Source of the DNA: a candidate division WOR-3 bacterium | GTDB lineage: Bacteria > Hydrothermota > Tepidihabitantia > Tepidihabitantales > Tepidihabitantaceae | Assembly: GCA_965649205.1 (NCBI GenBank) | Contig: CBFGJV010000017.1 | Location: 1-59,669 of the forward strand | Length of the DNA: 59,669 nucleotides | Reading direction: 5' to 3' | Shown here: positions 1 to 44,903 of the stretch, piece by piece | Layout of the letters: the number at the start of each line of letters is the position of its first letter | Numbering within the stretch: position 1 is the stretch's first letter | Made by a program: the position numbers and the translations under genes | The notes under the pieces: generated by a model | The model's input: the letters and a program-made list of their open reading frames with translations, nothing else | Told to the model about the DNA's origin: nothing | Database searches by the model: none

Positions 1-204
1 TTCAAACCTGGCTTCAACCCCGCACTCACCACACCCCTGAAACCAGAACTGAACCCCCTAATCAAACCTCTCTTCACACTCCACCTGTACTTCCCTTTCT
101 ATCCTCCCCTCACACCACAACTTAGCCACATACTCGCCCCAGAACTGTTCCCCCAGACCTTCCCCACCTTCTCCCCCTGGGTCACTGGGGGAGTCACTCC
201 CCCC
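1..204. repeat. Degenerate 12-bp-period array, 17 units, C-rich/G-poor on +, truncated by the window edge
   Basis: 12-mers from base 1 read ttcaaacctggc/ttcaaccccgca/ctcaccacaccc/ctgaaaccagaa/ctgaacccccta/atcaaacctctc... T at unit position 2 in 16 of 17 units, CC at positions 7-8 in 12 of 17, only 12 G in bases 1-177. Frame +1 is open to TGA at 238-240 and reads hydrophobic-x-Pro-x tetrapeptides (FKPG FNPA LTTP LKPE LNPL IKPL). Confidence 0.75.
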
Positions 205-423
205 TCAATTTCCGTGCCAAACCCCTGTGTCCCACCCTGATTCCATCTCCCAGCCGAACCATATTCCACCTTACTCTCGACCCGTCTCCACATCATCTTT
301 ACGAATCATACCTCCAAGAGCATATAACATATCTGAGAACACAACTAGGAAATGTCCAATGTCCCTGTCCTGACTCACCTGTAAAACCAGGTCTGCCAGT
401 ACAGAGAAGAAAGGAGTGAAACC

Positions 424-795
424 ATGAAAGACGCTACTCGCCGCATCTCCCGCTGGAGGGCAAAGTTCACGCCCGCCAGACAGGCAGAAACTCTGGCCGT
501 CATATACGAGGACATGGCCCGACGCTACGCCGCAGTCACAGTAGAACTGTGCTCTATGGAAACGCAAGTGAAACAGGTGCTAGACCAGGCCAAAGTGCAT
601 ACTAACTGGTACGTTTCATATCTGGACTTCGCGCGACAACTATTCCGGCTTTCGCGGCAGCAGGAAATATCCGGCAACAGTCTGGCGCTTGCGGCTCAGG
701 TACTCTTAGAGCGTTGGGCGGCCCGCGGTCTGAACCCGGATGTGCTCACCACCATTCGCCGCGAGGTATTCAATATCGGTCCGCCCGGACCGTAG
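424..795 (+). CDS. Small helical protein resembling the rudivirus (SIRV2-type, Adnaviria) major capsid protein
   Basis: SD AAGGAG at 411-416, ATG at 424. Collinear motifs RRISRWRAKF, QVKQVLDQAKV, YLDFARQL, SGNSLA, LNPDVLTTI match my recollection of SIRV2 MCP (QRYAKWQAKF, NVSAVLTQYGI, YQGFGLKV, SGPALV, ANPQVLDAV). The CDS is well supported; the family call is from memory, not a search. Confidence 0.7.
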   Translation: MKDATRRISRWRAKFTPARQAETLAVIYEDMARRYAAVTVELCSMETQVKQVLDQAKVHTNWYVSYLDFARQLFRLSRQQEISGNSLALAAQVLLERWAARGLNPDVLTTIRREVFNIGPPGP

Positions 796-852: not shown

Positions 853-2454
853 TTACCATTGAAAGGTGAAAATTGCGCGGGAACGCACATCCTGAATGTC
901 GTTGTGCATAGTGCCGACAACAATCCGGCCAGCAACTGACAATCGCCTGACGAGCCCCAGTTCCTCTACCACCTCCCGCACCAGTTGCACAAACGGCCCG
1001 GCAGTTCGGGGCAAGACGCCGTTTTCGCTCCGTACCAGCACTGGATAGACTCCGTACAAAAGCCGCAATCGGCGAGCGGTATCCAACCGTGTGGTAATGG
1101 CGATTACGGGCATGCGGGGACGAAAACGGGAAATCATCATAGCACTGGCTCCGGTAGTGGCATAGGAAACAATGAATGGAGCGTCTGCCTGCTCAGCCAG
1201 CTGACAAATAGGGTAGCCGATAACATGAATGTTTCGGGTTACCGGTTTGCGCGTAAACTCTCCTTTGAACTTGGCTAGATAAGCTTCCCGGTCTATAGGC
1301 ACTGTGGCCGCAATCACCCGGGCCATTACCTTGACACTCTCCAGAGGAAAATCGCCCACTGCTGTCTCACCCGATAACATGAGCGCATCGGCCCCCTCCT
1401 CTATGGCCGTGGCTATATCCTGAGGTTCGGAGCGATGCGGTAAAGGCCGCTGCATCATAGACTCCAGCAGCTGAGTGGCGACAATGACCGGCTTGCCCGC
1501 GATGTTCGCCTGGTTTATGAGCTCCCTCTGCACCCCAGGTATGCGGTCGTAATCCAAGAGCACTCCCAAATCGCCACGTGCCACCATAATGCCAAATACG
1601 TTCTCCTCCGCCAAAATGGATTCAATATTCCGCACCGCAACCGGAGACTCTATCTTGGCAATGATGGGCTTACCGGCCAGAGGCGTCTTTTCCAGAAACG
1701 CGGCCAGCTCGCGAATGTCTTCTGGCCCCTGCACAAATGACTGCGCAATCAGGTCCACATCAAAACCATGTTCCAGCGCCGCCTTATCCTCCTCCACATC
1801 CAGAGGACCAGCCAGCATCCTGCCACCAGCAACATCCGGCAGATTGAGATGTTTTCCTGTCCGTACTGTGCCCCGGTGTTCCGCCCGACAAATAACCAGG
1901 TCGGGGTTTCGTTTCCGTTCTACCCGCAGATATACATCGTTATCGCCTATCACCACTGTGTGTCCCGGCTCGATTTCGGCATAGATATCCTTGGGGTAGG
2001 TTACAAATAACCTTGCCCGTACCGCACTGACCATAGGCTTGTCCGCATCCTCGCTGTCGGATATCTGTACCCGATCGCCTTCTGTCAGCTCTAACCCCGG
2101 CACCACTTCCCCCTCCGCGGTCAGAATACTGGACACGCGAATCTCCGGCCCCTTCAGGTCCATGATGATAGGCAACGGAACTCTTAACCGCTCCTCTACG
2201 CCGCGAATAGCCGCAATCAACTGCTCTATCCGGCCAAAGTCGGACAGGTGCACATGCGAGAAGTTTATGCGCGCTGCGGCCATGCCGTGCTCGACCAGCT
2301 CTTCAATGGAAACCAGGGCCTCTGGTTCGGGAAAGGTGCCATCCGGCCGTCTTCCCTCCAGCGACACGCGCGGCCCCATCGTGCAGATAATAGCCAGCCG
2401 GTCTGAACTCACCGGCGCTGCTTTCAAAACCCGACCCGTAGTTTTGCGTTTCAT
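853..2454 (-). CDS. pyk: Pyruvate kinase
   Basis: IICTMGP, ARINFSH, DLKGPEIR, IIAKIES, GIMVARGDLG, ATQLLESM, DALMLSGETA motifs. Confidence 0.95.
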   Translation of the reverse strand: MKRKTTGRVLKAAPVSSDRLAIICTMGPRVSLEGRRPDGTFPEPEALVSIEELVEHGMAAARINFSHVHLSDFGRIEQLIAAIRGVEERLRVPLPIIMDLKGPEIRVSSILTAEGEVVPGLELTEGDRVQISDSEDADKPMVSAVRARLFVTYPKDIYAEIEPGHTVVIGDNDVYLRVERKRNPDLVICRAEHRGTVRTGKHLNLPDVAGGRMLAGPLDVEEDKAALEHGFDVDLIAQSFVQGPEDIRELAAFLEKTPLAGKPIIAKIESPVAVRNIESILAEENVFGIMVARGDLGVLLDYDRIPGVQRELINQANIAGKPVIVATQLLESMMQRPLPHRSEPQDIATAIEEGADALMLSGETAVGDFPLESVKVMARVIAATVPIDREAYLAKFKGEFTRKPVTRNIHVIGYPICQLAEQADAPFIVSYATTGASAMMISRFRPRMPVIAITTRLDTARRLRLLYGVYPVLVRSENGVLPRTAGPFVQLVREVVEELGLVRRLSVAGRIVVGTMHNDIQDVRSRAIFTFQW

Positions 2455-16481: not shown

Positions 16482-19400
16482 CTATTTCTGTATAACCAAC
16501 TTACCGGTGTACGTCGCAAGCTCGGTACCCACTCTTACGAGGTAAACCCCAGCAGGAAAACTGCGCATATCCAAAACGATGGAGGAAGTTTCCCGGCCGA
16601 AAGCAGGCGCTTGGCTTAATACCACGCGCCCCAACGCGTCGTACACTTTTACTGCTAACAGGCCTGTCTGCGGCAGGCTGAGTCTGATGGAAACCCATCC
16701 ATCTGCAACAGGGTTTGGCCGCAAAGAAAAGGAAGAAAAAGGCAGAGTCGCCCGGTAATCTGGAACAACCTTGCTAGTGTCGCCGCCACCTGCAGAAATG
16801 CCCAAAATCGGCAACGTGTAGCTCCACAGTTCGTAGGACTTGCCGCCCTTCAAGGCGTAAAAAACTCCATCACCGATACTGACTATATCAGCACCGGCCT
16901 TCACTCTCTTCGGTTTATCACTCCCTCTACCAAGCTGAGGCATGGTATCCAATTCATACCAAGTATCAGCTTCAGCTGAGTATCTGTAGAATTGGCAAGT
17001 ATTTCCTCCCTTCAGAGCGAAAATACTACCGCCATACCAGGTGCCGGACGCTCCATCCTTTGACTTCTTCTGCTTGACCCCGCCACCCTCAAGTCCGGCC
17101 AAGGGCATACCCCGTAAAGGTGTGCGCAACCAGGACTGGGTAGAAATAGAATAACGAAAGAGGAAGTGATTTGTTCCGTTGTTGCAAACCGCCTGGTGGG
17201 CATAGATGTTATCTTCTCCGTCATAGACCAGAAAAGACCCTCTATCGTACTTTGGTTTCTCAAAGTACGGAACGCTCTCCAGAGTATCCCATCGCTGGGC
17301 CTGAATGTTGAAACGATAAAACTCAGTCTTACCACCCTTCAGCAGATATATGTAACCAGTGTCGTTATGAAACACATATACCGCATCCGTTCCACCTTTG
17401 ACCTTTTTCCCCGCTCCTTTCGGAACTGAAGGCATCTGCTGCCAAGAATCGCCACTGATATCATAACGCCAGAATCCCAGAGTGCTATTGCCTTTAACCA
17501 TAAAGATGCTATTCCCACCATCGGTAACGCCGACGCAACCTTTAGCAGGAGGTTTATTCTTCCCTTCCTCTTCTTGCGGAATGTTGCAACGTTTAGTCCA
17601 GGCATCCGTGGCAGGATCATACTGGTAGAAGTCTACCGTTTTGTTACCTTTAGCCGCGTAGACAAGACCTTTCCCAGCATGATAAGTAAGCCAGGCGCCA
17701 TCTTTAGGTGCCAGCGGCGTAGGAACCTGCGGCATAGGTGCAGCTGGCGTCCAACCTGGCTGCGAAACTACATAGCAGCTTCCCCCTACAGTATCATTTC
17801 CCGGAGCCACATCCGTTCCCAGGACCGTGTAGGCCCTGACAGAGTATTTACCACCAGGACTCGCCGTCCAAGGACGGGAAAAGAAGAAAATGAAAGTATC
17901 GTCGCCCGGTATGAAGAGGTCATTTTCATACGCCTCGTAGGCTATCCTTCCTCCTTGCTCAATAATCAGATGCAGTTCACAGACCGCATCATAACTCTCA
18001 TAGTTAGCCACCCTGACTGCAGGCAAAACTACCGTTCCTGCGCTAACCGACCCTGCTGGCAGAAGGATACTGCTTACCCCCACGTCATGTATAGGATTGT
18101 CAACGATTGCGAAACTGCCCTGCATCAGATCGTTCGCCGGATTATCATCGTAAGCAAGATAGGTGGAACAGCGCACTAAGTATGGCCCAGAATTGTACGG
18201 CTTGGGCCACGCCGGCAGCACCAGAGTACGACTCTGTCCTGATTCCAGTGCCTCTACCCCGATGCTCTGCTCGTACACCTTAGCAGCGGTCTGGTCATAA
18301 AAGCTGACAAATACCTGAAAGGCGGTGGTGCGATTAACCCCGTAATTCTTCACCGTAACTCGCGGCACAACAGTCGCACTGGTATCAAGACTGCCGCCCG
18401 GAGCGTGTATTTTCACCACTCCTACATCGTACTCGGCTGGTGGCAGCACCCGAACCAGGACACCCAGCGTGTCATTGGCTGGATTGCCATCAGTCGGCAC
18501 ATAGACCGAGCAACGTGCAGCGTAGTTCCCAAACGCATGCGGAGCCAGCCAGGGGCGAAAATTCACAGGCATGGTCGAACCTATCGCCAACTCTGAAATA
18601 AAGCAACTGTCGCGATACACCGGACCATACCCTTCCTGCACAACAGTGAACCACACTTTACAACCAAATACCACTGGCCCCACGTTAGCAACCGTAACCG
18701 CAGGAATCACGGTAGCGCCCGTATCCAGTATGCCAGATGTGGGGGCATATATGGTGGTAACCGCTGCATCTGGAGCGGTATTCAGCGGCTCGGTTCTGAA
18801 GTTGAACGTGGAGTTACACAAAGTAGCTCCCCCCGCATTTTTCGCTACCACTCTCCAGTAGTATTTATTGTCGTTAGTCACCCAATTAGTGTAAGGCAGA
18901 ACTGTATCCGTAATATCCCAGCCGATCTTAGTGATCGGATGCGTGTAACGGTCTAAATACACGTCATACCATACGGCTCGAGGCGCAGATCTCCAGGTCA
19001 ACAGTCCCGACAAAGGTAGACCAGTAGAGCCATTCGGAGGCGTGGAAAGGCTGAAAGACCCCGGTCTAGCCACAACAGTGGTAAAACTCCAGATACCTGA
19101 GCTGGTAATACCTCCTGCATTTCTGGCCACAACTTTCCAGTAGTACCGTCGGTCATTGATAAGCCCGGAATAGTTAAAACTGGTATTGACCTGATTAGCA
19201 CTCCGTAGTACCTGCGGTGGATTAACCGTGTCCAGATAGACATCATAACCGGTTGCACGCGCAGCACCCACCCAGCTGAGTGTTCCGGAAATCCCTTGAT
19301 CTAAAGCCCCGTTCATTGGCGAACTCAACTGCGGCAACGCGGGGGCCAACATAGTCTTGAAACTGTTCACCTCCGACTCGGTTCTACCCCCGGGGTTTCT

Positions 19401-22181
19401 AGCTGTGACGCTCCAGTAATAAACACGCCCGTCCTGCAGACCAGAACAAACCAGCACAGTATCGGAATAACCCCTGGCCAGGGTTTCCACTGGCGGATTG
19501 ACTGTATCCAACAACACATAGTATCCGTCTGCCCTCAAGGACTTGGACCAAACCAAGGTATCTATTACCGGTCTGTCAGCTTGGCCATTTTCCGGCTTGA
19601 GAAGCGAAAAAGATGCCGGCTTTTCTTCCACCACTACAATATCCTTCTCAACATAGTCGTTGGTCGGATCTTCATCAGGTCCCAACTCGGTTTGGGCAAG
19701 ACAACGGAAGACCTGCTGTGGCCCGGCCAGCCAGTAATACTGCGAGAAGGTAAACGTACGAGTTTCATCTACGTCAAGGGAGCTGACCATTTCCACGCTG
19801 TCGAACACTACCCCGTCCTTGTTGTCCCATATCGTCACTCGTACACCAAAAGTTTCCACCGTACTACCGTAGTTGGACACATTGACTTGGGGATACACTT
19901 GGGTTTTCTCGCTAACCGTGTCTGCGGGCGACAATATGGCCGAAATTCCCACATCCCGCCTTGCTCCACTAACCCAGTCTACTAGATTATTCGGATCGTT
20001 ATCATAGTCTTCACCCCAGCGGGTTCCACCACCATAACTTACAACTACCCTGCCGACCGTGGTCAGCTTTTCTATATTGCTGCCGGCTGTACCGTAAAAA
20101 CTGAGATTAGTGATGTTAGTGAGGAACTGATTATTCTCTATCTTCAGCATCGGTCCTGCTAAATCGCCATGGTCAAAAACACAGCTGGAAAAATTATCTA
20201 CTGAGTCAATGATTGCTCCGAACTCAATATTTATCCCAGAATTATCCATCCATTGGAAAATAGCCCTTCTGGCAGCAATGGTCGCCCCAGACGCCACCAC
20301 AAAATTGTAGGGAAATCCCTCGCTGGCTGCGACTACCTTGGCGCGTGTACCTCCTGTCCCCACCGCAGAAAACCTGCCGCCGTTTATCCTCACGCTGCCA
20401 GCATTTGAGCTAGTACCAAGGGTGAGAACATTTCTGCCTATCGCAAATGTGCCAGAATTTACTGTAAGCCTATCAACCACCTGCAGGGCATCTGTTAGGC
20501 TTATGCTCCCAAAACCTTTGTCTATGGTAAGGCGATAGAAACTGGCACCGGCAGAAGTCACCGTATGCTCTCCTGTTCCTGTAAATGTCACCTGCCGGCT
20601 GCCATGAGAATAACTGCCTGTATTCGACCAACTCCCGGAGACATAAATATCCGCCGCCTGCGCCAGGCTTCCCTCATTGCTGACACTTCCCACGACATAA
20701 CCCTTACCCGCGCTAAAACTCCCGCCCAGAGTAAGTGACGCTCCCGCCTTGACTACAATACCTTCTGCCACCGTTACAGAACGACTGAGCGCACCGCTAC
20801 CCGAACTGAAAACTACTGCACCACCCATTTTCTCCACCAACAGTCTGTTGAAATCCCAGATGCTAGAAACGCTAGTTTGAGAATTGTGCAACACGACACT
20901 GGACCCCGCGCTCCCCACAAACTTAACCAGCGCGCTTCCAGTAGCCCGGAATACGCTATTGTTAGTAGCTAACACATCCCCACTGAAGGAAACCGTGCCG
21001 GCACTTGCATACCAACCACCGTCTCCCGATGCCGGACCCAATACGAGCTGGATGCCAGTACCCGTGTAATTGATCTCCCCCCCACCGCAATCAAAACGCG
21101 CCATTCCCCCCAATTGATGCTCCCTAATAATGAGACTAGGGTTCTCTGAAACCAGTACCGTGGCCGGAAATGCCGCACTCTGGTTCAAGTAGAACAAACT
21201 AACTGCGCTCGTCCCAGTTATGACCAAACGACCGTCAAAGGTGCCTCGCAGCTCGCCAGCTTCCACCAACAAACTTTGGCCATTAGTCAGCAGAGTACCG
21301 CGCACCAGCTCCACAGCCGGACCTGCACTTCCATCATACGACAAAGTAAGACCGCAATTCAGGGTCACTTCATCGTAAACGGAAGCCTTTTCAATGGACA
21401 GACGTCCCAAGAGGAGAGCAGACACGCTGCTCACGGCTGACTTTCCCGCTCCCGTCAAAACCAGAAGGCTGTTCTTGCCCATCGCAACGGTACCAGTATT
21501 TGTGAAACTCCCGGCCAAGGTTAGCCTACCAGTCTGAACCACAAGACTGCCCTTGTTCACCATTCCAGCCGGAAGAGTAATACTGCCGCTTGTACTGCTG
21601 AGCGTACCATCATTCGTGAAATCTCCGCCGCCGGTTACAGTCAGGCTGCCGGTACCTAGAGCTAACACACCGGAATACGTGTTGACTAATCCCCAGTTGC
21701 CCTGTATCACCAAGCTCCCGCCACTGAAATTCATGATTCCAGAGTTGGTCAAACCGCCAGAACCCGTGCGCACGGTTATCGTTGCACCTGCCACCGACTC
21801 TACCGTGCCGGTATTGACAAAATCCAGAGCAGAAATGGAGCTCGACCTCGGCCAGCGTAACACGCCATCATTGCGAAGTCTATATACTATGTTTAGAGGA
21901 AAACTGCGCGTAGCGGTTAAAATACCGCCAGGCTGAATCTCCACCTGACTCACCGTATAAGTTCTTCCTGCGTCATAGCGGACAGTGTGACGAATAATGA
22001 CTGTATCTGACGACGTTCTGGGTATACCTGGTGGGCTCCAAGTAGTCTGCTGCGTCCACCGCCCCGACGTCACGCTTATGTACTGTGCGGCCAACAACAG
22101 TTCTGACGCTGCAAGAAATAAACCAAGACTAAAAACCACTCTGCAAAACTTCATGCGCACCATCCTTAGTTTAATTCCCAT
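16482..22181 (-). CDS. Giant secreted multidomain protein: beta-helix-like N-region, CARDB/Ig and FN3 repeats, beta-propeller, T9SS-type C-terminal sorting domain
   Basis: Signal peptide; Gly/Thr/Asn-rich region; three YYWxVxAxN FN3 repeats; four DVGV/DAAV...NDT CARDB-like units; KGNKTVDFYQY/KGNSTLGFWRY/LKGG blades; C-terminal PNP...VYDALGRVV...PAGVYLVRV...KLVIQK. Confidence 0.8.
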   Translation of the reverse strand: MGIKLRMVRMKFCRVVFSLGLFLAASELLLAAQYISVTSGRWTQQTTWSPPGIPRTSSDTVIIRHTVRYDAGRTYTVSQVEIQPGGILTATRSFPLNIVYRLRNDGVLRWPRSSSISALDFVNTGTVESVAGATITVRTGSGGLTNSGIMNFSGGSLVIQGNWGLVNTYSGVLALGTGSLTVTGGGDFTNDGTLSSTSGSITLPAGMVNKGSLVVQTGRLTLAGSFTNTGTVAMGKNSLLVLTGAGKSAVSSVSALLLGRLSIEKASVYDEVTLNCGLTLSYDGSAGPAVELVRGTLLTNGQSLLVEAGELRGTFDGRLVITGTSAVSLFYLNQSAAFPATVLVSENPSLIIREHQLGGMARFDCGGGEINYTGTGIQLVLGPASGDGGWYASAGTVSFSGDVLATNNSVFRATGSALVKFVGSAGSSVVLHNSQTSVSSIWDFNRLLVEKMGGAVVFSSGSGALSRSVTVAEGIVVKAGASLTLGGSFSAGKGYVVGSVSNEGSLAQAADIYVSGSWSNTGSYSHGSRQVTFTGTGEHTVTSAGASFYRLTIDKGFGSISLTDALQVVDRLTVNSGTFAIGRNVLTLGTSSNAGSVRINGGRFSAVGTGGTRAKVVAASEGFPYNFVVASGATIAARRAIFQWMDNSGINIEFGAIIDSVDNFSSCVFDHGDLAGPMLKIENNQFLTNITNLSFYGTAGSNIEKLTTVGRVVVSYGGGTRWGEDYDNDPNNLVDWVSGARRDVGISAILSPADTVSEKTQVYPQVNVSNYGSTVETFGVRVTIWDNKDGVVFDSVEMVSSLDVDETRTFTFSQYYWLAGPQQVFRCLAQTELGPDEDPTNDYVEKDIVVVEEKPASFSLLKPENGQADRPVIDTLVWSKSLRADGYYVLLDTVNPPVETLARGYSDTVLVCSGLQDGRVYYWSVTARNPGGRTESEVNSFKTMLAPALPQLSSPMNGALDQGISGTLSWVGAARATGYDVYLDTVNPPQVLRSANQVNTSFNYSGLINDRRYYWKVVARNAGGITSSGIWSFTTVVARPGSFSLSTPPNGSTGLPLSGLLTWRSAPRAVWYDVYLDRYTHPITKIGWDITDTVLPYTNWVTNDNKYYWRVVAKNAGGATLCNSTFNFRTEPLNTAPDAAVTTIYAPTSGILDTGATVIPAVTVANVGPVVFGCKVWFTVVQEGYGPVYRDSCFISELAIGSTMPVNFRPWLAPHAFGNYAARCSVYVPTDGNPANDTLGVLVRVLPPAEYDVGVVKIHAPGGSLDTSATVVPRVTVKNYGVNRTTAFQVFVSFYDQTAAKVYEQSIGVEALESGQSRTLVLPAWPKPYNSGPYLVRCSTYLAYDDNPANDLMQGSFAIVDNPIHDVGVSSILLPAGSVSAGTVVLPAVRVANYESYDAVCELHLIIEQGGRIAYEAYENDLFIPGDDTFIFFFSRPWTASPGGKYSVRAYTVLGTDVAPGNDTVGGSCYVVSQPGWTPAAPMPQVPTPLAPKDGAWLTYHAGKGLVYAAKGNKTVDFYQYDPATDAWTKRCNIPQEEEGKNKPPAKGCVGVTDGGNSIFMVKGNSTLGFWRYDISGDSWQQMPSVPKGAGKKVKGGTDAVYVFHNDTGYIYLLKGGKTEFYRFNIQAQRWDTLESVPYFEKPKYDRGSFLVYDGEDNIYAHQAVCNNGTNHFLFRYSISTQSWLRTPLRGMPLAGLEGGGVKQKKSKDGASGTWYGGSIFALKGGNTCQFYRYSAEADTWYELDTMPQLGRGSDKPKRVKAGADIVSIGDGVFYALKGGKSYELWSYTLPILGISAGGGDTSKVVPDYRATLPFSSFSLRPNPVADGWVSIRLSLPQTGLLAVKVYDALGRVVLSQAPAFGRETSSIVLDMRSFPAGVYLVRVGTELATYTGKLVIQK

Positions 22182-22225
22182 CCCTTTACGGCGTAGCCGT
22201 TACTGCGCATCTCCTACCTCATTAC

Positions 22226-25200
22226 TTACTTTTTCAGAACTATTCTCCGGGTCCAAAACTCACCGCCTGCCTCTAATCTCACCAGATAGGTGCCACTCGA
22301 CAATCTGCGCAGGTCCAGAGAAATGCCGCTATACCAGTTATCTTTACTAAGTTCCTGCATATACACACATCTACCTGTTGCGTCGAAGATTCGTATCTGA
22401 CCAGCCATTCGTGCACCCGCTTTATCTTCTAGGCGGAAGAATACTACGCCCGGCTTCAATGCACTCGGAGACAGGCCGAACCTTAATCTACTAGACTGTG
22501 CCTGGCTTGTCCGGCTGTTATACTCCCACCTCTGGTCTGCGGTCAGTCCTGCGGGTTCCCAGTATCGCCATAACTCTCGCGTCTTTCCGCCCTTCAGCGC
22601 CAAGAAGTATCCGCCGCCCAGAGAAATCAAATCACCACCCGCCTTGACTTTTTTCTTGCTCAAAGAAGAGCCATAACTGGGCATAGTATCTAGTTCATGC
22701 CAGACCTCGGTACTGGGATCAAATCTGTAAAACTCACAAGTACCACCGCCTTTCAAGGCATACAGGGAGCCGTTATACCATACGCCCGCCGCACCATCAC
22801 CCGAACGTTTTACTCTTCCCTCCGTATTCATCAAAGGCATTCCAGGAATGAAACGACCGTCCCAGTCCATCTGCTCAAGGTCAAATCGGAACATGAAGTG
22901 ATTAGTAGGAGTACGGTACTTGGCTTGGTGGCAATAAATGCTCTTGTTGCCGTCGTAAACCAGAAATGAGCCCTTTTCGTATTTGGGATTTGCCTCACCC
23001 AGAGGCGCAGGTTTCATAGTATCCCATCTAGCGGCAATAGTGTTATAGCGGTAAAACTCATTACCCACCCCCTTCAAAAGATAAACCCAGCCAGTATCTC
23101 CCTTCCGCACAAAGACCAGGTCCGTCCCGCCTTTAACCTTTTTGCCAGCACGCCCCTCAGGCACATCTGGCAGTCTGTGCCAGGAATCACCATCTGCATG
23201 GTAACGCCAGAATCCAAGGGTGTTATTACCCTTAGTAGCATACACATGGCCTGCGCCATCAGAAACACCCACCGACCCCTTGTAAGGCAGTTTTTCCTTG
23301 CCATGCTCCATGGTGCCCATACCGGCACGCTTCTGCCAAGAACCATCAGTAAGCTTGTACTCGTAGAAATCTGTACTCTTGTTGCCCTTAGCTACCCAAA
23401 CCACTGGCTCACCAGAAGCGAGTACGCCAGCTGCTAGCCAGGCTCCATCCTTTGCAGCTTTACCGCTGGGCTCAGACAGCATTGGCATGGCTTCCGACCA
23501 TTTCTCCGGCCAATTGGGTCCACCGAAAACGGTAAAGTAGTACCTTGGCCAGAAGAATTCACCCCAGTCTGCCTCATTCCGTGCCCGACACTGCCACCAA
23601 TAGGTCTTACCTGATTCCAATTCTTGACTCACTACCCAAGAGTTAGTTTCGCTATATCCCTCTGCCACCAAGCCCTTACCTACCCCTCCCCTTCCTCCGC
23701 CTTCTTGGTCTTTCATCGGTTCTTCATAAACTTGGAAGTGATATTCCAAAGCACCTTCAATATGTTGTACGGAAAGTTTAGGCCGAACGGTAAACAACAT
23801 TGCCCCATCTTGAGGCTCAACCGGAATCGGTGTCTCAGGCAAAACTCGAGTGCGGAAGTTCCGCCTGGGACTAAAGAAGGCTCCCCAGCCATACTGATTC
23901 TGAGCTCGACACTGCCACCAGTACTCCTTACCATTTTCCAAAGCAGGATACACTGCCCAAGATGGCCGGTCTGTAACTGTTTCTACAACTAACGCGCCTG
24001 TCTCGCCGTCATACACCTGAAAATTGTAAGCAATGGCAGCTGTCACAGGACTTACCGCCAGTGATGGTGTCAAATCTGGGACCTGCTCTCCCGGTTCCGG
24101 GGCAAGCGGGACAGGAGGACCCGGAACAGCTGCAATGCGAAAGCTCCACCGGGGAGAGAAAAAGTTACCCCAACCTGCCGCATTACGTGCCCTGCACTCC
24201 CAAGTGTATTCCAGTCCCCCGGTCAAACCCGGTTCTATTGTCCACTTCGTACCTGCATCCGTAGTTCTGGCTACTACCGTGCCTCCCTGCCAGACCTGAA
24301 ACTCGTAGGCTTCAGCGTCGGTCACCGGCAGAACCTCAAGTTCCGGACATGCGGTATTCACTTCTATGCCGTTCTCAGGAGCAACTGGCTCTGGTGCAAC
24401 CGGTAATATCTTTATTTTGAAGGTCCGACGGGAGGAAAACGCACTCCAACCCGCCACATTGTGCGCTCGACAATCCCAGGTATATGTTCTGCCGTTGACT
24501 AATTCTGGCACAACTACATAAGTCTCGCTGCCAGATGTATACAAATCCGCTCGTTTAATCGTGCCTTCGAAGACGCGAAAGTTATACTGGTCTGCGCCGG
24601 ATACAGGATGGACCTCAAGGGTAGGAGTAAGTGTAGCTAGCTCCTCGTTCTGCGCTGGCGACTTCAGCACTGGCACTGACGGAAGCACGCGTATCTTGAA
24701 ACTGCAGCGTGGCACGAAGTAATCACCCCACCCTTTGGCATTCATCGCCTGGCAGTCCCAGAAATACCACTGAGCATTACCCAGATCCTCATCCAGGGTC
24801 CAAAAATAAGTGCCGGTCTCTACTTGCTTTAGCGGCTCTGAACTTCCCTTCTGAAACACGCGGAATCTGTACAACTGCGCATCGTTGATGGGTGCAACCC
24901 GCAACTGGGGACGATAGGTAGCCACAGAATCTCCGTTAGTCGGAGCTTGAGCAACAGGCCGCGGAGGCACCTGGCCTTCTAGGCGGAAAGCAGCTCGGGG
25001 AGAGAAAAACGGTCCCCAGCCAACTACATTACTATCCCGGCAATCCCATTCGTAGTCATAATTGTCAACACTGAGGTCTGTTGCCGGAAACCAGGACTCG
25101 CTCGTAGAGAATCCTTCAGTTTCCAAGTTTCCATCGCGGAAAATCCGGAAATGTCGCTTCAGTATGCCTGTTGACGAATTCACTTTAAGCGTCGGTCGGT

Positions 25201-26857
25201 AACTGGTCACAATTTCTCCGCCCAAGGGATATTGCGGCACTGGCGGGTTAGGCAGGTCCTCCACCCTGAAGGTCCAACGCGGCTCAAACATCGGACTCCA
25301 TCCGTTTGCAATCTTCGCCCGGCATTCCCACTCATGCCATTGCCCATTGGCCAAAAAAGCGTTCACCCTCCAGGTCCGACTATCAGAGGAATCCTGAGCA
25401 ACAAGGTCTCCGGTCGACGTCCTGTACACCCGAAAATGAAACTTCGTTGCCCCAGGATACTCCTTAACCTCCAGAATTGGTCGTATGGTATCTACTGGCT
25501 CTCCGTTTGCCGGCGACAACGGCTCCGGTGCCAGGCGAACTGTAAAATAACGGACAGGCAAAAAAGGGTCTCCCCAACCAGCAATATTCTTTGCAGCCGC
25601 AGTCCACTGATAAGTTACCCCATTTTCCAAATTCTGGGTCATCGTCCACGAAATCCCGGCGTTTGTAGTACATTCAACCAGCGTCCCGCCCTTATAAACC
25701 CAGAACCCGTAGCAATCGGCACCTGGTACATCCTCCACTACGAAAGTCGGCGTCAGAGTACCCACACTCGCATTCGCGGCCGGTGCTACTGGCACCGGAG
25801 CAGCCGGTTTGGGTATTCTTACAGTAAAAGTCCAACGTGGATAGAAAAACCCGCTCCAGGTACCGTTCTTACGCACTCGACAATCCCACTCGTAAGATTC
25901 TCCATGCAGCAGGTCCTCAGTTACTGTCCAGGCATTACTTGAAGTTACGACGTTGAAAATTGGCTCGGTGACTCCAGATTGGAATAACCGGAACTGGTAA
26001 CTCTCCGCCCCCGTTACAGAAGACACCCGCAGAGTAGGACGAAACACTTCTACCACACTACCATTCTCTGGCTGCAAGGGAGTCGGTCTACTTGGTGCCC
26101 CAGGCACATAATCAACTATTAGCCTGGGTTTGTGCTCGTCATTGCTACCCTCAAAAAGAATCCCCCACCAGTTTCCCGTCCCTTCGTCATCATATCCCAC
26201 TGCAAACCAATCGTCGGCCAACTTGTTCTCCAAGTCCAGGCAAGCCTGAAAAGACAAACCTACGTCCAACCACTTAGCCGGATAAGGGTCGGGGTTCTCA
26301 TATACCCCGTACACGGCACCGCTACCGACGTCCTCGAAAAGCGCTTGAGCATCTCCAGATTGAGGTCTGACAGAAATATCTCTAAGAATCACGCGGTCCG
26401 GCACCGGGAGGGGCTGGGTCTCACCGGATGGATAACAATAGCTACTACAACGCAACCCCAGTATGGTACTACCATCAGGAATAGAACCTACATTCCACTC
26501 TGCAAATGCACGATACTCATATTCCTGTCCCGGGTATCTGGCATCCGTGCCGCACCTTATCGTCCTCTGTTCACTCTTGAAGTATAATCCCCAGACAGTA
26601 TACACGTGTCCGCTATAACCGGCTTCAACAGGAACTATAGTGCTTTCTGCGTCAGCCAAATCAGAAGCGAGTATTATCGCTCGGACCGAACCGTCGCCAT
26701 TAGAAAAATGTCTTGCATTCGCAGTGCGTAACTCCACCAGTTCGGTGCCTCTGGGCAGAAAGCCGGAGGAAGCAAATACTCCGGCATGCCCGGCAATGCT
26801 GACGCCACCCAGAATTAGCGACAATATAACGATAAAGCAAGACTGTCGTGTTCTCAC
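22226..26857 (-). CDS. Giant secreted protein: nine tandem Ig/FN3-like repeats, beta-propeller, T9SS-type C-terminal domain
   Basis: Signal peptide, SD GGGAGG before GTG. Nine ~95-aa repeats (PxPxxPxNG...PxLxV...YxWxCRAxNxxGWG.FF.PR). Same propeller as its neighbour. C-terminal IFDATGRCV...SSGTYLVRL...RIVLKK. Confidence 0.82.
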   Translation of the reverse strand: MRTRQSCFIVILSLILGGVSIAGHAGVFASSGFLPRGTELVELRTANARHFSNGDGSVRAIILASDLADAESTIVPVEAGYSGHVYTVWGLYFKSEQRTIRCGTDARYPGQEYEYRAFAEWNVGSIPDGSTILGLRCSSYCYPSGETQPLPVPDRVILRDISVRPQSGDAQALFEDVGSGAVYGVYENPDPYPAKWLDVGLSFQACLDLENKLADDWFAVGYDDEGTGNWWGILFEGSNDEHKPRLIVDYVPGAPSRPTPLQPENGSVVEVFRPTLRVSSVTGAESYQFRLFQSGVTEPIFNVVTSSNAWTVTEDLLHGESYEWDCRVRKNGTWSGFFYPRWTFTVRIPKPAAPVPVAPAANASVGTLTPTFVVEDVPGADCYGFWVYKGGTLVECTTNAGISWTMTQNLENGVTYQWTAAAKNIAGWGDPFLPVRYFTVRLAPEPLSPANGEPVDTIRPILEVKEYPGATKFHFRVYRTSTGDLVAQDSSDSRTWRVNAFLANGQWHEWECRAKIANGWSPMFEPRWTFRVEDLPNPPVPQYPLGGEIVTSYRPTLKVNSSTGILKRHFRIFRDGNLETEGFSTSESWFPATDLSVDNYDYEWDCRDSNVVGWGPFFSPRAAFRLEGQVPPRPVAQAPTNGDSVATYRPQLRVAPINDAQLYRFRVFQKGSSEPLKQVETGTYFWTLDEDLGNAQWYFWDCQAMNAKGWGDYFVPRCSFKIRVLPSVPVLKSPAQNEELATLTPTLEVHPVSGADQYNFRVFEGTIKRADLYTSGSETYVVVPELVNGRTYTWDCRAHNVAGWSAFSSRRTFKIKILPVAPEPVAPENGIEVNTACPELEVLPVTDAEAYEFQVWQGGTVVARTTDAGTKWTIEPGLTGGLEYTWECRARNAAGWGNFFSPRWSFRIAAVPGPPVPLAPEPGEQVPDLTPSLAVSPVTAAIAYNFQVYDGETGALVVETVTDRPSWAVYPALENGKEYWWQCRAQNQYGWGAFFSPRRNFRTRVLPETPIPVEPQDGAMLFTVRPKLSVQHIEGALEYHFQVYEEPMKDQEGGGRGGVGKGLVAEGYSETNSWVVSQELESGKTYWWQCRARNEADWGEFFWPRYYFTVFGGPNWPEKWSEAMPMLSEPSGKAAKDGAWLAAGVLASGEPVVWVAKGNKSTDFYEYKLTDGSWQKRAGMGTMEHGKEKLPYKGSVGVSDGAGHVYATKGNNTLGFWRYHADGDSWHRLPDVPEGRAGKKVKGGTDLVFVRKGDTGWVYLLKGVGNEFYRYNTIAARWDTMKPAPLGEANPKYEKGSFLVYDGNKSIYCHQAKYRTPTNHFMFRFDLEQMDWDGRFIPGMPLMNTEGRVKRSGDGAAGVWYNGSLYALKGGGTCEFYRFDPSTEVWHELDTMPSYGSSLSKKKVKAGGDLISLGGGYFLALKGGKTRELWRYWEPAGLTADQRWEYNSRTSQAQSSRLRFGLSPSALKPGVVFFRLEDKAGARMAGQIRIFDATGRCVYMQELSKDNWYSGISLDLRRLSSGTYLVRLEAGGEFWTRRIVLKK

Positions 26858-42324: not shown

Positions 42325-43155
42325 CTAAAGCGGCCGCCGATTTTCAAACCGCGTAGGCGTTATGCCAAGTTCTAAAAGAGACCGTATAGTTTTGTCTATA
42401 CCCGAACCAAGATCCCCCGGCCTATGTGCATCAGAACCAACCGTGAATACGGAAATACCTGCTTCTCTGGCTTGCCGTAGCACAGAAAAAGCCGGATATG
42501 GTTCAGCATCTCCCCGACGTAACGCCGAGGTATTCACCTCTAGACCAACACCAGCATTAACCAGATATTTGAGTACAGACTCCATTTCTCTCTCTGCACA
42601 CTCAACAAACTCTGGGCCGTACATGGATTGTATGTACTTGCGGTATATGTCCAGATGCGCCAGGCAATCAAATAATCCTGACCCGGCCGCAGCTCGAACG
42701 TATTCGAAATAACGACGTACAACAAACTCAGCTGGTTTGTGCCCGAACACCGCACGAAACTCGTCCACTTCGGCTCCCGAAGTCAAGGCTATGTGGTCAA
42801 TCAGATGCACGGCGCCCAACACAAAGTCAAAAGGATAGTGGGCAAGAAAGTCTTTCACTATCCCTTCTACGCCCATTTCATATCCCACTTCTACGCCCGC
42901 CCTTACTATCAATCCGGGGAACCTTTTTCTCATTCTTTCTATTTCCGCAAAGTACGCGACCGGCCAGTTCGAATCGGTTGTCATTCGCAGGCCGCCTACT
43001 TGTACGAATTCTCGATCACGTCTTGCGGGATCACATTCGTGATGGGTTGTAAAACATATCTCCTTCAGACCCAATTCTAAGGCTCGCACACAGTACTCCT
43101 CCATGCTGCCTTCCGCGTCTTGAGAAAAATTCGGATGAATGTGGTAGTCAATCAT
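42325..43155 (-). CDS. PHP-domain phosphatase, histidinol-phosphatase HisJ/HisK family
   Basis: DYHIH, FTTH, GVEVG, LGAVH, LAHLD, LEVNTS, GSDAH. Confidence 0.85.
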   Translation of the reverse strand: MIDYHIHPNFSQDAEGSMEEYCVRALELGLKEICFTTHHECDPARRDREFVQVGGLRMTTDSNWPVAYFAEIERMRKRFPGLIVRAGVEVGYEMGVEGIVKDFLAHYPFDFVLGAVHLIDHIALTSGAEVDEFRAVFGHKPAEFVVRRYFEYVRAAAGSGLFDCLAHLDIYRKYIQSMYGPEFVECAEREMESVLKYLVNAGVGLEVNTSALRRGDAEPYPAFSVLRQAREAGISVFTVGSDAHRPGDLGSGIDKTIRSLLELGITPTRFENRRPL

Positions 43156-44903
43156 GAGCTCATCCCCACTTCCGCCTGCATTCCAAACTCAAATTCGAGG
43201 TTACTTTTGTAAGTACAACCGATCTTGAATCCCAGACCGGTACTTTTGGTAAATCTGAATCCTCCACCTAGCCCAGCACGCCAAGCAGAACTGGAAGTAC
43301 TGAAGGTCGAACCACTGCGCAGTGGACCATATTCACTCATAAACATTCTGATACCCATCCCTGAAATGTCAAAACGAGCTGCAGTGAAGTTGAGCCAAAA
43401 ACCATTTTGTTCTGTTCTTGCCATCATACCAAACATGTTACCCCGTCCCAAACTTCTGTCCGGGTAAGCATCAGCAAACATCAGCCTTACTTCGCCTTGA
43501 CGAAACGGAGCAAAAACAGCGATAAATCTAGCGGTGCGAAGCCGTTCCTGCTCCAGCCGGTAACTGCGTCCCAGACGTAGCTCGGCTGAAAAGCCAATGG
43601 ACTTGACCGCGAAGCAGGCCTCCAGTCGGGCGGGAAGCGAATCAAGCTCGTAGTCCCGATAAGTGTTGCCTCGCACACTTAAGCTAAATCTCCCCGCTCT
43701 GTAACCGAGGCGCCCATTACTGGTCAATCTACTCCTTCGGTCAGTTAGTGTCCGCCAGCAACTGAGAGGAGCAAAATACCTGCGATCATAACCAGCCGCC
43801 TTCCATTCTACGCTCCAGTTCCTCCATATCCCAGAAACATCCACAGCTCCTGCTCCTCCCCCGCCGCTGGAGAACCCAGCTTCTCCTCCCAGCAAGTATG
43901 CGCCAGTTTTTGCCGTGAAGTGCACTCCAACGCTCCCCAGTGTCGTTCCAAAAAACGAATTCGTGGAATCTATGGCTGCGAAAGAACGACTATACTTCAC
44001 TCCGTATGCAGCTGTTCCAAAGCGCAAGTTCCGCCATGCTCTGGCCAAGTCTAATCCCACCGATGCTTCCTGCACGGAATTACGACTCGCTATCGCAGCA
44101 GAATCATCATGCAATCCAGAAAAAATCAACTTCCTTACCGTACCATCTGGATTCAATCTGGCATCTCGTCCGACCACGGAAATAAATGCCAGGCCCCTCC
44201 AATTACCACCAGAAAAATCGGCACCCACTCCCCTTAAATTCCTGCTCTCGAGTGAAACCCCGACCAATCTCAAACCAGATGGCCCTACAGCCTCCCCTGT
44301 CCAGCCAGCCGCAGCCCGACGATAAGGTCCTGATAAAACCAAACCTAGTCCAGATCCAACGCTGAAATCGCCTATTATCGCTTTCCAGCCTGAGGCTGCA
44401 TACTGCAGACCCGTACCAAACCAATCTGACCAATTAGTCTCTCCTCGATCCTTCTCCAACACCACCGAAGCAAGCCAGGAACCCTGCTCCAGCCGCGCTC
44501 GGACGAACGACCGCACCCTGCGCGCACAAACGGGTGAGGTATCTACATCCACAACTGTACGCAACATTATGTCTCCACTCCATACAGAATCTTTTTGATT
44601 TAGTATAACCACCGGCAAAAGCGAACGATAAACCTCCTCCGTCACTCCGGGAACCGATCGCAAAGCTGACAAGGAATTGAACCCGCCCACTGAATCTCGA
44701 AACGATATGATGCGGTAAGCAAGCAAAGGACAAAGCCAGGGAATCGCAAGCAAATCCTCTGCGCGAACCCTATTCAGATCCAGAGGATGCCGCAACAGCG
44801 ATTCCACCTCTTCCTTTACTGCCAAGTCATCTTTATCCGGTATCGAATTGTAGTCAGGTTCGCTGAGAACGGAACCCAACAGGAAAAGCAATATTAGTGC
44901 CAT
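43152..44903 (-). CDS. ComEA-like helix-hairpin-helix domain fused to a predicted outer-membrane beta-barrel
   Basis: Signal-like N-terminus, PLDLNRVRAEDLLAIPWL...GGFNSLSALRSVPGV, then EKDRGE, IIGDF.VG.GLGLV and amphipathic beta-strands. Confidence 0.7.
   Translation of the reverse strand: MALILLFLLGSVLSEPDYNSIPDKDDLAVKEEVESLLRHPLDLNRVRAEDLLAIPWLCPLLAYRIISFRDSVGGFNSLSALRSVPGVTEEVYRSLLPVVILNQKDSVWSGDIMLRTVVDVDTSPVCARRVRSFVRARLEQGSWLASVVLEKDRGETNWSDWFGTGLQYAASGWKAIIGDFSVGSGLGLVLSGPYRRAAAGWTGEAVGPSGLRLVGVSLESRNLRGVGADFSGGNWRGLAFISVVGRDARLNPDGTVRKLIFSGLHDDSAAIASRNSVQEASVGLDLARAWRNLRFGTAAYGVKYSRSFAAIDSTNSFFGTTLGSVGVHFTAKTGAYLLGGEAGFSSGGGGAGAVDVSGIWRNWSVEWKAAGYDRRYFAPLSCWRTLTDRRSRLTSNGRLGYRAGRFSLSVRGNTYRDYELDSLPARLEACFAVKSIGFSAELRLGRSYRLEQERLRTARFIAVFAPFRQGEVRLMFADAYPDRSLGRGNMFGMMARTEQNGFWLNFTAARFDISGMGIRMFMSEYGPLRSGSTFSTSSSAWRAGLGGGFRFTKSTGLGFKIGCTYKSNLEFEFGMQAEVGMSS

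Follow-up and report, generated by a model that had tools for sequence, protein, structure and literature searches.

We propose that a gene near the left end of a contig from a candidate division WOR-3 bacterium encodes a domesticated protein of the Adnaviria capsid fold, and that this protein probably polymerises on its own 12-bp-phased DNA arrays as site-specific chromatin and not as a virus coat, a reading to which we assign a probability of roughly 0.6. The stretch of DNA analysed (the window, 59,669 nucleotides) is contig C17 of a genome (G000) that is 2.15 Mb in size and 98% complete. Its relevant features are these:

4..255, no strand: non-coding array, about 21 degenerate units long, each of 12 bp and all in strict register (A at 1, T at 11, C/G at 12)
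187..203, no strand: odd palindrome with core GGGAGTCACTCCC at 189-201, its centre in phase with the array
299..327, plus strand: promoter-like motif TTACGAA-N15/16-GCATATAA, with 6 copies in the genome
411..416, plus strand: putative ribosome-binding site AAGGAG, recognised by its sequence
424..795, plus strand: gene for a capsid-fold protein of 123 aa (SIRV2/Adnaviria-type, five helices), a member of an order-wide multi-copy family
853..2454, minus strand: pyruvate kinase gene (pyk), a convergent neighbour given as context, outside the system

Judged by sequence profiles and a predicted model, the 123-aa protein (P0001) is homologous to the capsid proteins of SIRV2 and other Adnaviria and has the same fold. 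Our profile of 90 diverse relatives (A2), made of P0001 and 89 full-length ones chosen among 150 matches listed, was compared with the PDB and matched SSRV1 (6wq0; 3e-9), SIRV2 (3j9x; 3e-8), SFV1 (6e-6), and AFV1 (2e-4), with SSRV1, SIRV2, SFV1, and both AFV1 capsid proteins all preceding any unrelated chain. Moreover, hhalign of the profile with SIRV2 ORF134 gave 95% over 110 columns, while the identity of P0001 itself to rudivirus capsid proteins is about 20%. Used alone, P0001 reached Pfam PF12193 (Sulf_coat_C) with an E-value of 2.7e-4 and 21.5 bits, below the cut-off of 25.2, and a match above this cut-off is found in 5 of 21 genomes of the order. Single-sequence searches with P0001 returned no significant match among PDB chains, PHROGs, or NCBIfam and no usable match in the ESM Atlas, and Pfam SFV1_VP4 had no match in this genome. 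The P0001 model (pLDDT 90.7) places helices at residues 4-14, 17-55, 60-79, 84-100, and 105-115, which form a long N-terminal helical arm and a C-terminal four-helix bundle. Here, Foldseek listed SIRV2 (3j9x) first with an E-value of 1.7e-3, every E-value being above 0.001. In the VIA wide fold search, ranks 1-7 were all Adnaviria capsids, with Z running from 12.8 (rmsd of 2.6 with 81 residues aligned) to 8.0 and the next unrelated chain at 7.7; a fold Z of 12-13 can be reached by chance for helical bundles, and here the fold matches agree with the sequence test. The basic residues R7, K14, K50, R71, and R101 are conserved in 87-91% of the 90 relatives, and P0001 has 18 K/R and 12 D/E versus 11 and 2 in SIRV2, which makes it less basic overall. 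A homodimer prediction for P0001 scored 0.02 and gave no answer. An earlier sequence-only reading had called the gene a rudivirus-type capsid homologue on the basis of five blocks shared with the SIRV2 capsid protein; these blocks do occur in the same order in P0001 and SIRV2 ORF134 (NC_004086), the homology is supported by the profile search, hhalign, and fold searches, and the comparison of a model with capsid structures, which that reading had suggested, is led by Adnaviria capsids.

That reading had also described a well-punctuated gene with a basic N-terminus (RRISRWRAKF) that converges with pyk, and the open reading frame, the AAGGAG, and pyk were all confirmed. The gene is under purifying selection, with a dN of 0.095 and a dS of 1.315 against the copy in genome G001, and with paralogue pairs giving dN of 0.04-0.16 versus dS of 0.2-0.8. 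Among the rows listed (40 of 147), which derive from three hot-spring runs in two studies, 14 of 15 in-gene differences lie at third codon positions, and a contig of 6,172 nt from run X3 covers 524-1500 and so joins the gene to pyk in a related strain. Upstream, the TTACGAA-N15/16-GCATATAA motif precedes this gene and two more loci of the family, as well as three gene starts that are truncated or decayed, and it is a candidate promoter; a sigma-70 consensus scan did not call the motif at 299-327, and a promoter/terminator scan together with Rfam over 1-1000 found nothing.

The array at 4-255 has a period-12 score of 0.142, which 0 of 5000 shuffles reached, and about 8 more units on the overlapping contig C23 bring its total to about 29. 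Its palindrome, read from the sequence, may be a nucleation or high-affinity site: many related arrays have similar ends, and the palindrome pattern has 7 copies in this genome versus 0 for a reversed control, with up to 21 copies in genomes of this family and 0-2 elsewhere. The array, palindrome, and promoter region of the window have a duplicate, about 90% identical, at G000:C16:1-300 and C36:12990-13202, which leads into a secreted-peptidase-like gene, not a capsid-fold gene. This genome also has a second type of array, one strand of which is strongly C-rich, and at G000:C5:990-1410 a C-rich array stands upstream of a gene that, from its sequence, resembles rho, with the C-rich strand opposite to the gene. 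Elsewhere in the window, 43050-43320 has a marginal period-12 score, though it does not look like an array.

The setting of the gene is that of a bacterial chromosome. The first 99 bases of the window are exactly the end of contig C23, and from this overlap, the sole one of its kind in the assembly, the two contigs probably adjoin. C23 carries the start of the array, a tRNA-Arg(CCT), and TPR, ABC-F, RF-1-domain, GTPase, and DUF1015 genes, so that the sequence to the left of base 1, which the sequence-only reading had wished to see read, holds a tRNA and housekeeping genes, and its alternative of an Adnaviria-like element extending leftwards is not supported; a virus to the left of the window was rejected. 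Housekeeping genes also make up the right flank. As that reading had stated, no integrase, replication, or virion gene appears among the 40 other long window ORFs scanned with NCBIfam, 11 of which have no family. Likewise, integrase, Rep, and virion families are absent among 117 neighbours of 41 related loci (Pfam) and among 89 of the 96 neighbours at 20 metagenome loci (PHROGs); one IS-like HTH (in the 41 loci), one endolysin-like peptidase M15, and one Pam3 gp33-like protein are present. A search of this genome with 20 SIRV2 proteins matched only a glycosyltransferase, located elsewhere, and nothing convincing came from phage and plasmid collections. Those relatives that bear a name belong to candidate division WOR-3, one being labelled Latescibacteria, and the window holds mreBCD, pbp2, rodA, and T9SS cargo, which speaks for a bacterial and against an archaeal host. 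The region 16485-26857 encodes two T9SS-sorted proteins of very large size (1899 and 1543 aa), and T9SS-type genes are not enriched near family loci (3/10 versus 29% for random). Thus the gene has no transposase, integrase, or Rep of its own beside it, as an autonomous mobile element would; it does not sit among replication, virion, and egress genes, as in an Adnaviria virus or provirus; and no head-tail morphogenesis cluster, the hallmark of a gene transfer agent, is found among the neighbours.

Nor is the gene alone, as had been claimed, since 14 matches to the family profile are found in this genome, comprising five full-length single genes (C12, C13, C17, C21, and C22), operons of diverged domains (C5, C13, and C43), and tandem fusions (C3 and C42). 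With an iterated profile the count is 17 domains at 10 places, of which two domains are weak (domain E of 0.001-0.006). Counting paralogues here and in relatives, as had been recommended, shows the family to be multi-copy in this genome and present in 35/35 genomes of this WOR-3 order versus 0/166 others of the phylum sample; each of the 31 genomes in a relatives search (31/31) has 1-35 matches, and 981 metagenome clusters (at 50% identity) match, mostly without names. A further form is an XRE regulator, whose family model (from G011) has an HTH followed by two capsid folds that superpose on AFV1 capsids at residues 108-233 (Z of 9.9, rmsd of 3.2, 121 aligned) and 242-365 (Z of 11.1, rmsd of 7.9, 117 aligned). 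The single XRE protein of this genome is not significant against A2, and the XRE family alignment and model are. A search for longer relatives found none and was insensitive, because the fusions exist nonetheless. Together, order-wide occurrence, purifying selection, housekeeping neighbours, and fusions to HTH regulators favour the domesticated capsid gene that the sequence-only reading had offered as one alternative.

Several family loci of this genome have conspicuous surroundings, and the CRISPR-Cas locus is flanked by family genes. The two-domain operon on C43 (L211) directly adjoins a CRISPR array, the single gene on C12 (L202) is 1.5 kb from cas3, and the C3 tandem fusion adjoins a TdeIII-type restriction-modification pair. 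At G000:C1:37140-38709 (L201, L233), an array is followed by an XRE-capsid-fold gene that is apparently split into a 120-aa HTH ORF and a 265-aa ORF. At G000:C12:69575-70912 (L202), the promoter-like motif precedes an ECF sigma gene that by eye seems frameshifted, upstream of the C12 paralogue, and an intact ECF sigma gene is near the decayed C1 family copy. In other genomes, each of the three sampled family genes of G005 (L183, L185, and L186) contains a stretch of N towards its 5' end, and L058, labelled Cryobacterium, is a gene of the window's clade with an array, its contig being likely mis-binned.

Arrays recur upstream of the family as a whole. Out of 99 loci we examined the 61 non-redundant ones that had a near-full gene and 700 bases upstream, and found that the mean upstream autocorrelation peaks at 12, 24, 36, 48, and 60, without a 3-base rhythm. 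With the array threshold set at the 95th percentile of the scores from 300 upstream control regions, 34/61 upstream regions pass versus 3/50 downstream, and for the periods 10, 11, 13, and 15 the upstream counts are 1, 5, 4, and 0 of 61. Two clades were parted with a quick tree (123 columns, long-branch warnings, no viral outgroup) that served this purpose solely. Arrays precede 34/37 rows of the window gene's clade and 0/28 of its sister, counts that leave out rows with too little upstream DNA and that include many rows from one genus and related, non-independent genomes; for the sister clade in metagenomes, an adjacent array is found at 5/21 loci examined (of 34). Moreover, arrays stand upstream of 17/20 two-domain operon loci and 11/20 XRE loci. 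Most arrays have about 40% in-register identity and keep their period and length (16-29 units, median of 25), while the consensus differs between genomes and lineages and many are not symmetric. In pairwise alignments, indels mostly sum to multiples of 12 by inspection, distant pairs being noisy. The pooled matrix of 708 units from 28 arrays is two-fold symmetric, with an r of 0.83 versus 0.25 or less for other axes. Median symmetry is about 0.73 for single genes (28 arrays) versus about 0.33 for two-domain operons (15 arrays), and the lowest symmetry among the 28 belongs to the array of the window itself (r of 0.16).

For the distribution of such tracts between lineages, a fixed TSR-every-12 pattern was dropped as a marker in favour of a pattern-free scan: it matched 58/91 genomes and fails to separate lineages because a coding Cys-His repeat matches it outside the order. 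In G158:C1:377428, G224:C35:12415, and many f6/f7 genomes, all outside the order, a single-copy 12-bp repeat reads by eye as a Cys-His-Ser-Ala-type peptide, and the out-of-order G092 has a near-perfect 12-bp minisatellite. Matches to the periodic pattern are very high in G015 (575), G233 (183), and G001 (165), which suggests array expansions in these three. The pattern-free scan counted 23 period-12 tracts here, while eight other in-order genomes, sampled over 1.2 Mb, gave 30, of which 16 came from G005, for which 3/20 windows had been chosen to include family genes. No tract was found in samples of G189 (160 kb), G029 (60 kb), or G173 (40 kb). Outside the order, 0.8 Mb from four genomes gave 2 tracts (one a coding Cys-His repeat, one marginal), so that the in- versus out-of-order difference has a binomial p of 2e-5, or 0.002 without G005, with kinship ignored. 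Other periods gave 0-3 tracts. Among 36 strong tracts, 0 are enclosed in an ORF that exceeds the tract length by more than 700 bases, and 10 lie between convergent genes.

These data bear on an alternative that takes the arrays for minisatellites worn down by time, or for degenerate coding repeats of 4 residues, unlinked to the protein, which would then have another helical-bundle job. Twelve is divisible by 3, some arrays lack stops in a frame (16/28 have one or more of the six frames open), the tract at L193 looks like a coding linker, and the number of genes does not correlate significantly with that of pattern matches (rho of 0.33, p of 0.056). Against this, there is no 3-base rhythm and no depletion of stops, which number 42/191/28/51/50/260 over the six frames of 28 arrays (708 units) versus 40/202/37/56/45/266 after column shuffling. 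Furthermore, a single period persists across lineages despite a different consensus, arrays precede three kinds of capsid-fold genes, and tracts are nearly absent outside the order. Arrays unlinked to the protein are hence highly improbable, and the array as a protein-coding sequence was rejected.

Fainter still is the prospect that the arrays act as RNA, namely as Rho-utilisation-like tracts or protein-coated transcripts, and not as DNA sites. A rut site is marked by a transcribed strand that is rich in C, poor in G, and unstructured, and one strand has a strong excess of C both in the window's array (skew of 0.62) and in the second array type of this genome. Many homologous arrays have a skew near 0, however, and the pooled matrix is two-fold symmetric. 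Symmetric positions show no consistent excess of pairing (one pair above and two below expectation), and folding energies lie below those of dinucleotide shuffles but near lattice-preserving ones (z of +0.9 to -2.9); a hairpin RNA was rejected. Rfam has no match to the array, and the 10 of 36 tracts between convergent genes also speak against a role as RNA.

An explanation that we consider unlikely, if less so than the two above, is that array and gene form a minimal selfish element or satellite, in which the array would be a packaging signal, the protein would coat and move it with the help of an unseen virus, and scattered copies would be insertions and ruins. The range of 1-35 matches per genome would suit this, as would the decayed family copies, neighbours that differ between genomes (the G001 copy, 83% identical, has an upstream neighbour other than the window's), truncated gene starts after arrays on C1, C20, and C10, and the near-identical gene-free copy of the array on C16/C36. 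Several restriction or toxin-antitoxin genes are found among the neighbours, and P0001 matches one stretch in IMG/VR, which may come from a record, labelled as viral, of this genome or one very close to it. Conversely, the family occurs in every searched genome of the order under purifying selection, no integrase or Rep accompanies it apart from one IS-like HTH in 41 loci, three clade alignments (A1, A3, and A4) found nothing in IMG/VR, and clpB and ribA/B are conserved neighbours within genera. Fusions to regulators point the same way, as do the many tracts of the single-contig G005, which do not adjoin its three sampled family genes.

Between these in likelihood, and distinctly improbable, are inducible filamentous particles or a protective coat on host DNA (GTA- or SASP-like), for which the arrays would be start sites of long filaments. 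Spore SASPs induce A-like DNA, and gene transfer agents are head-tail gene clusters. Here, the capsid fold with its intact N-terminal arm, the shared promoter-like motif, the occurrence of related strains in hot-spring runs, and sigma-70-family genes next to 5/41 related loci and 3/20 metagenome loci (none of the window's clade) would be in keeping with such particles. There is, however, no recurring gene cluster and no end-capping or egress gene, the arrays end near 30 units, and the HTH fusions point to local regulation.

We therefore return to site-specific chromatin as the preferred reading. One capsid dimer covers 12 bp of A-form DNA in solved virions, according to PMC5517147 (the AFV1 heterodimer, 'as with SIRV') and PMC7189273 (that of PFV2), and the SIRV2 dimer has a two-fold axis running through the DNA, one turn being made of 14.7 dimers (PMC5517147, PMC7189273); rudi- and lipothrixviruses are described in PMC4390879 as often showing 12-bp indels. 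A polymer of this kind would read a 12-bp lattice with just such symmetry, from which we infer that dimers would nucleate at the palindrome and then cover the array, lined up with one dimer per unit. About 300-350 bp would be wrapped into a short virion-like solenoid, predicted to be A-form, and, with the geometry of SIRV2, coverage of an array would amount to about two turns. The gene could be autoregulated through the array that precedes its promoter, and gene-free arrays could be acted upon in trans. The lattice may have been selected as a signal, or it may be the trace that stable binding leaves through mutation; both would imply occupancy in vivo. The SIRV2 genome has no period-12 array, and sequence-guided binding would therefore be a new property. 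On the same reading, the two-domain operons would supply heterodimers reading polar arrays, the HTH fusions would be sequence-specific anchors, and the chromosome would be organised or regulated by a family that the order possibly acquired, at its root, from an Adnaviria-like virus. Counting against this reading are the low symmetry and C-richness of the window's array, the lower overall basicity of P0001, the sister clade with its 0/28 arrays, the varying consensus, the three samples that gave no tract, the non-significant correlation of gene and pattern counts, the arrays with open frames, the G092 minisatellite, and the differing neighbours and decayed copies. More tentative, and in our estimate a little short of an even chance, is the extension to an order-wide chromatin with a positioning code, in which homodimers, heterodimers, and HTH-anchored tandem dimers would make virion-like A-form solenoids on dozens of arrays and so organise or switch the DNA nearby.

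In searches of open-licence papers and preprints, we found no description of bacterial homologues, of domestication, or of such arrays. A 2024 review presents adnavirians as widespread in archaea and seemingly unconnected to bacterial viruses, with a unique capsid protein (PMC10848233), and a preprint describes duplicated and fused capsid genes in archaeal viruses and not in cells (bioRxiv 10.1101/2025.08.23.671958). A cellular bacterial family of the Adnaviria fold that every searched genome of one order has kept and that has diversified into operons and regulator fusions breaks this archaeal-virus boundary and bears on the origin of the fold. Moreover, a small protein and 350 bp of DNA offer a direct assay for sequence-guided A-form wrapping, which is undescribed for these capsids; if the proposal is true, bacteria would have a chromatin of a new kind, which might also serve as a tool to coat DNA in a programmable way.

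Compared with known systems, the closest likeness is to the rudivirus capsid proteins (SIRV2 3j9x, SSRV1 6wq0, and 3f2e, the SIRV C-terminal domain), in full-length sequence and fold, the basic N-terminal arm, and the five blocks, whereas the bacterial protein differs in its chromosomal location, its many paralogues, the lack of viral genes nearby, and the 12-bp arrays that are absent from the SIRV2 genome. The same fold is found in AFV1 (5w7g/3fbz/3fbl), SIFV (6wq2), PFV2 (6v7b), and SFV1 (6d5f), and the MCP1/MCP2 pairing of lipothrixviruses, tristromaviruses, and SFV1 has a likeness in the two-domain operons and tandem fusions of the bacteria, though the bacterial versions include XRE HTH fusions and come without an envelope or virion partners. 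With gene transfer agents, the family shares virus-derived structural genes on a bacterial chromosome under purifying selection, but these are dispersed single genes and short operons of a filamentous-virus fold and not head-tail clusters. Finally, histones with their nucleosome-positioning periodicity, ParB spreading from parS, and SASPs are alike in that a protein polymerises on or wraps chromosomal DNA with a periodic or palindromic signal, while here the fold is unrelated, the period is 12 and not about 10, and the arrays are many, dispersed, and 200-350 bp long.
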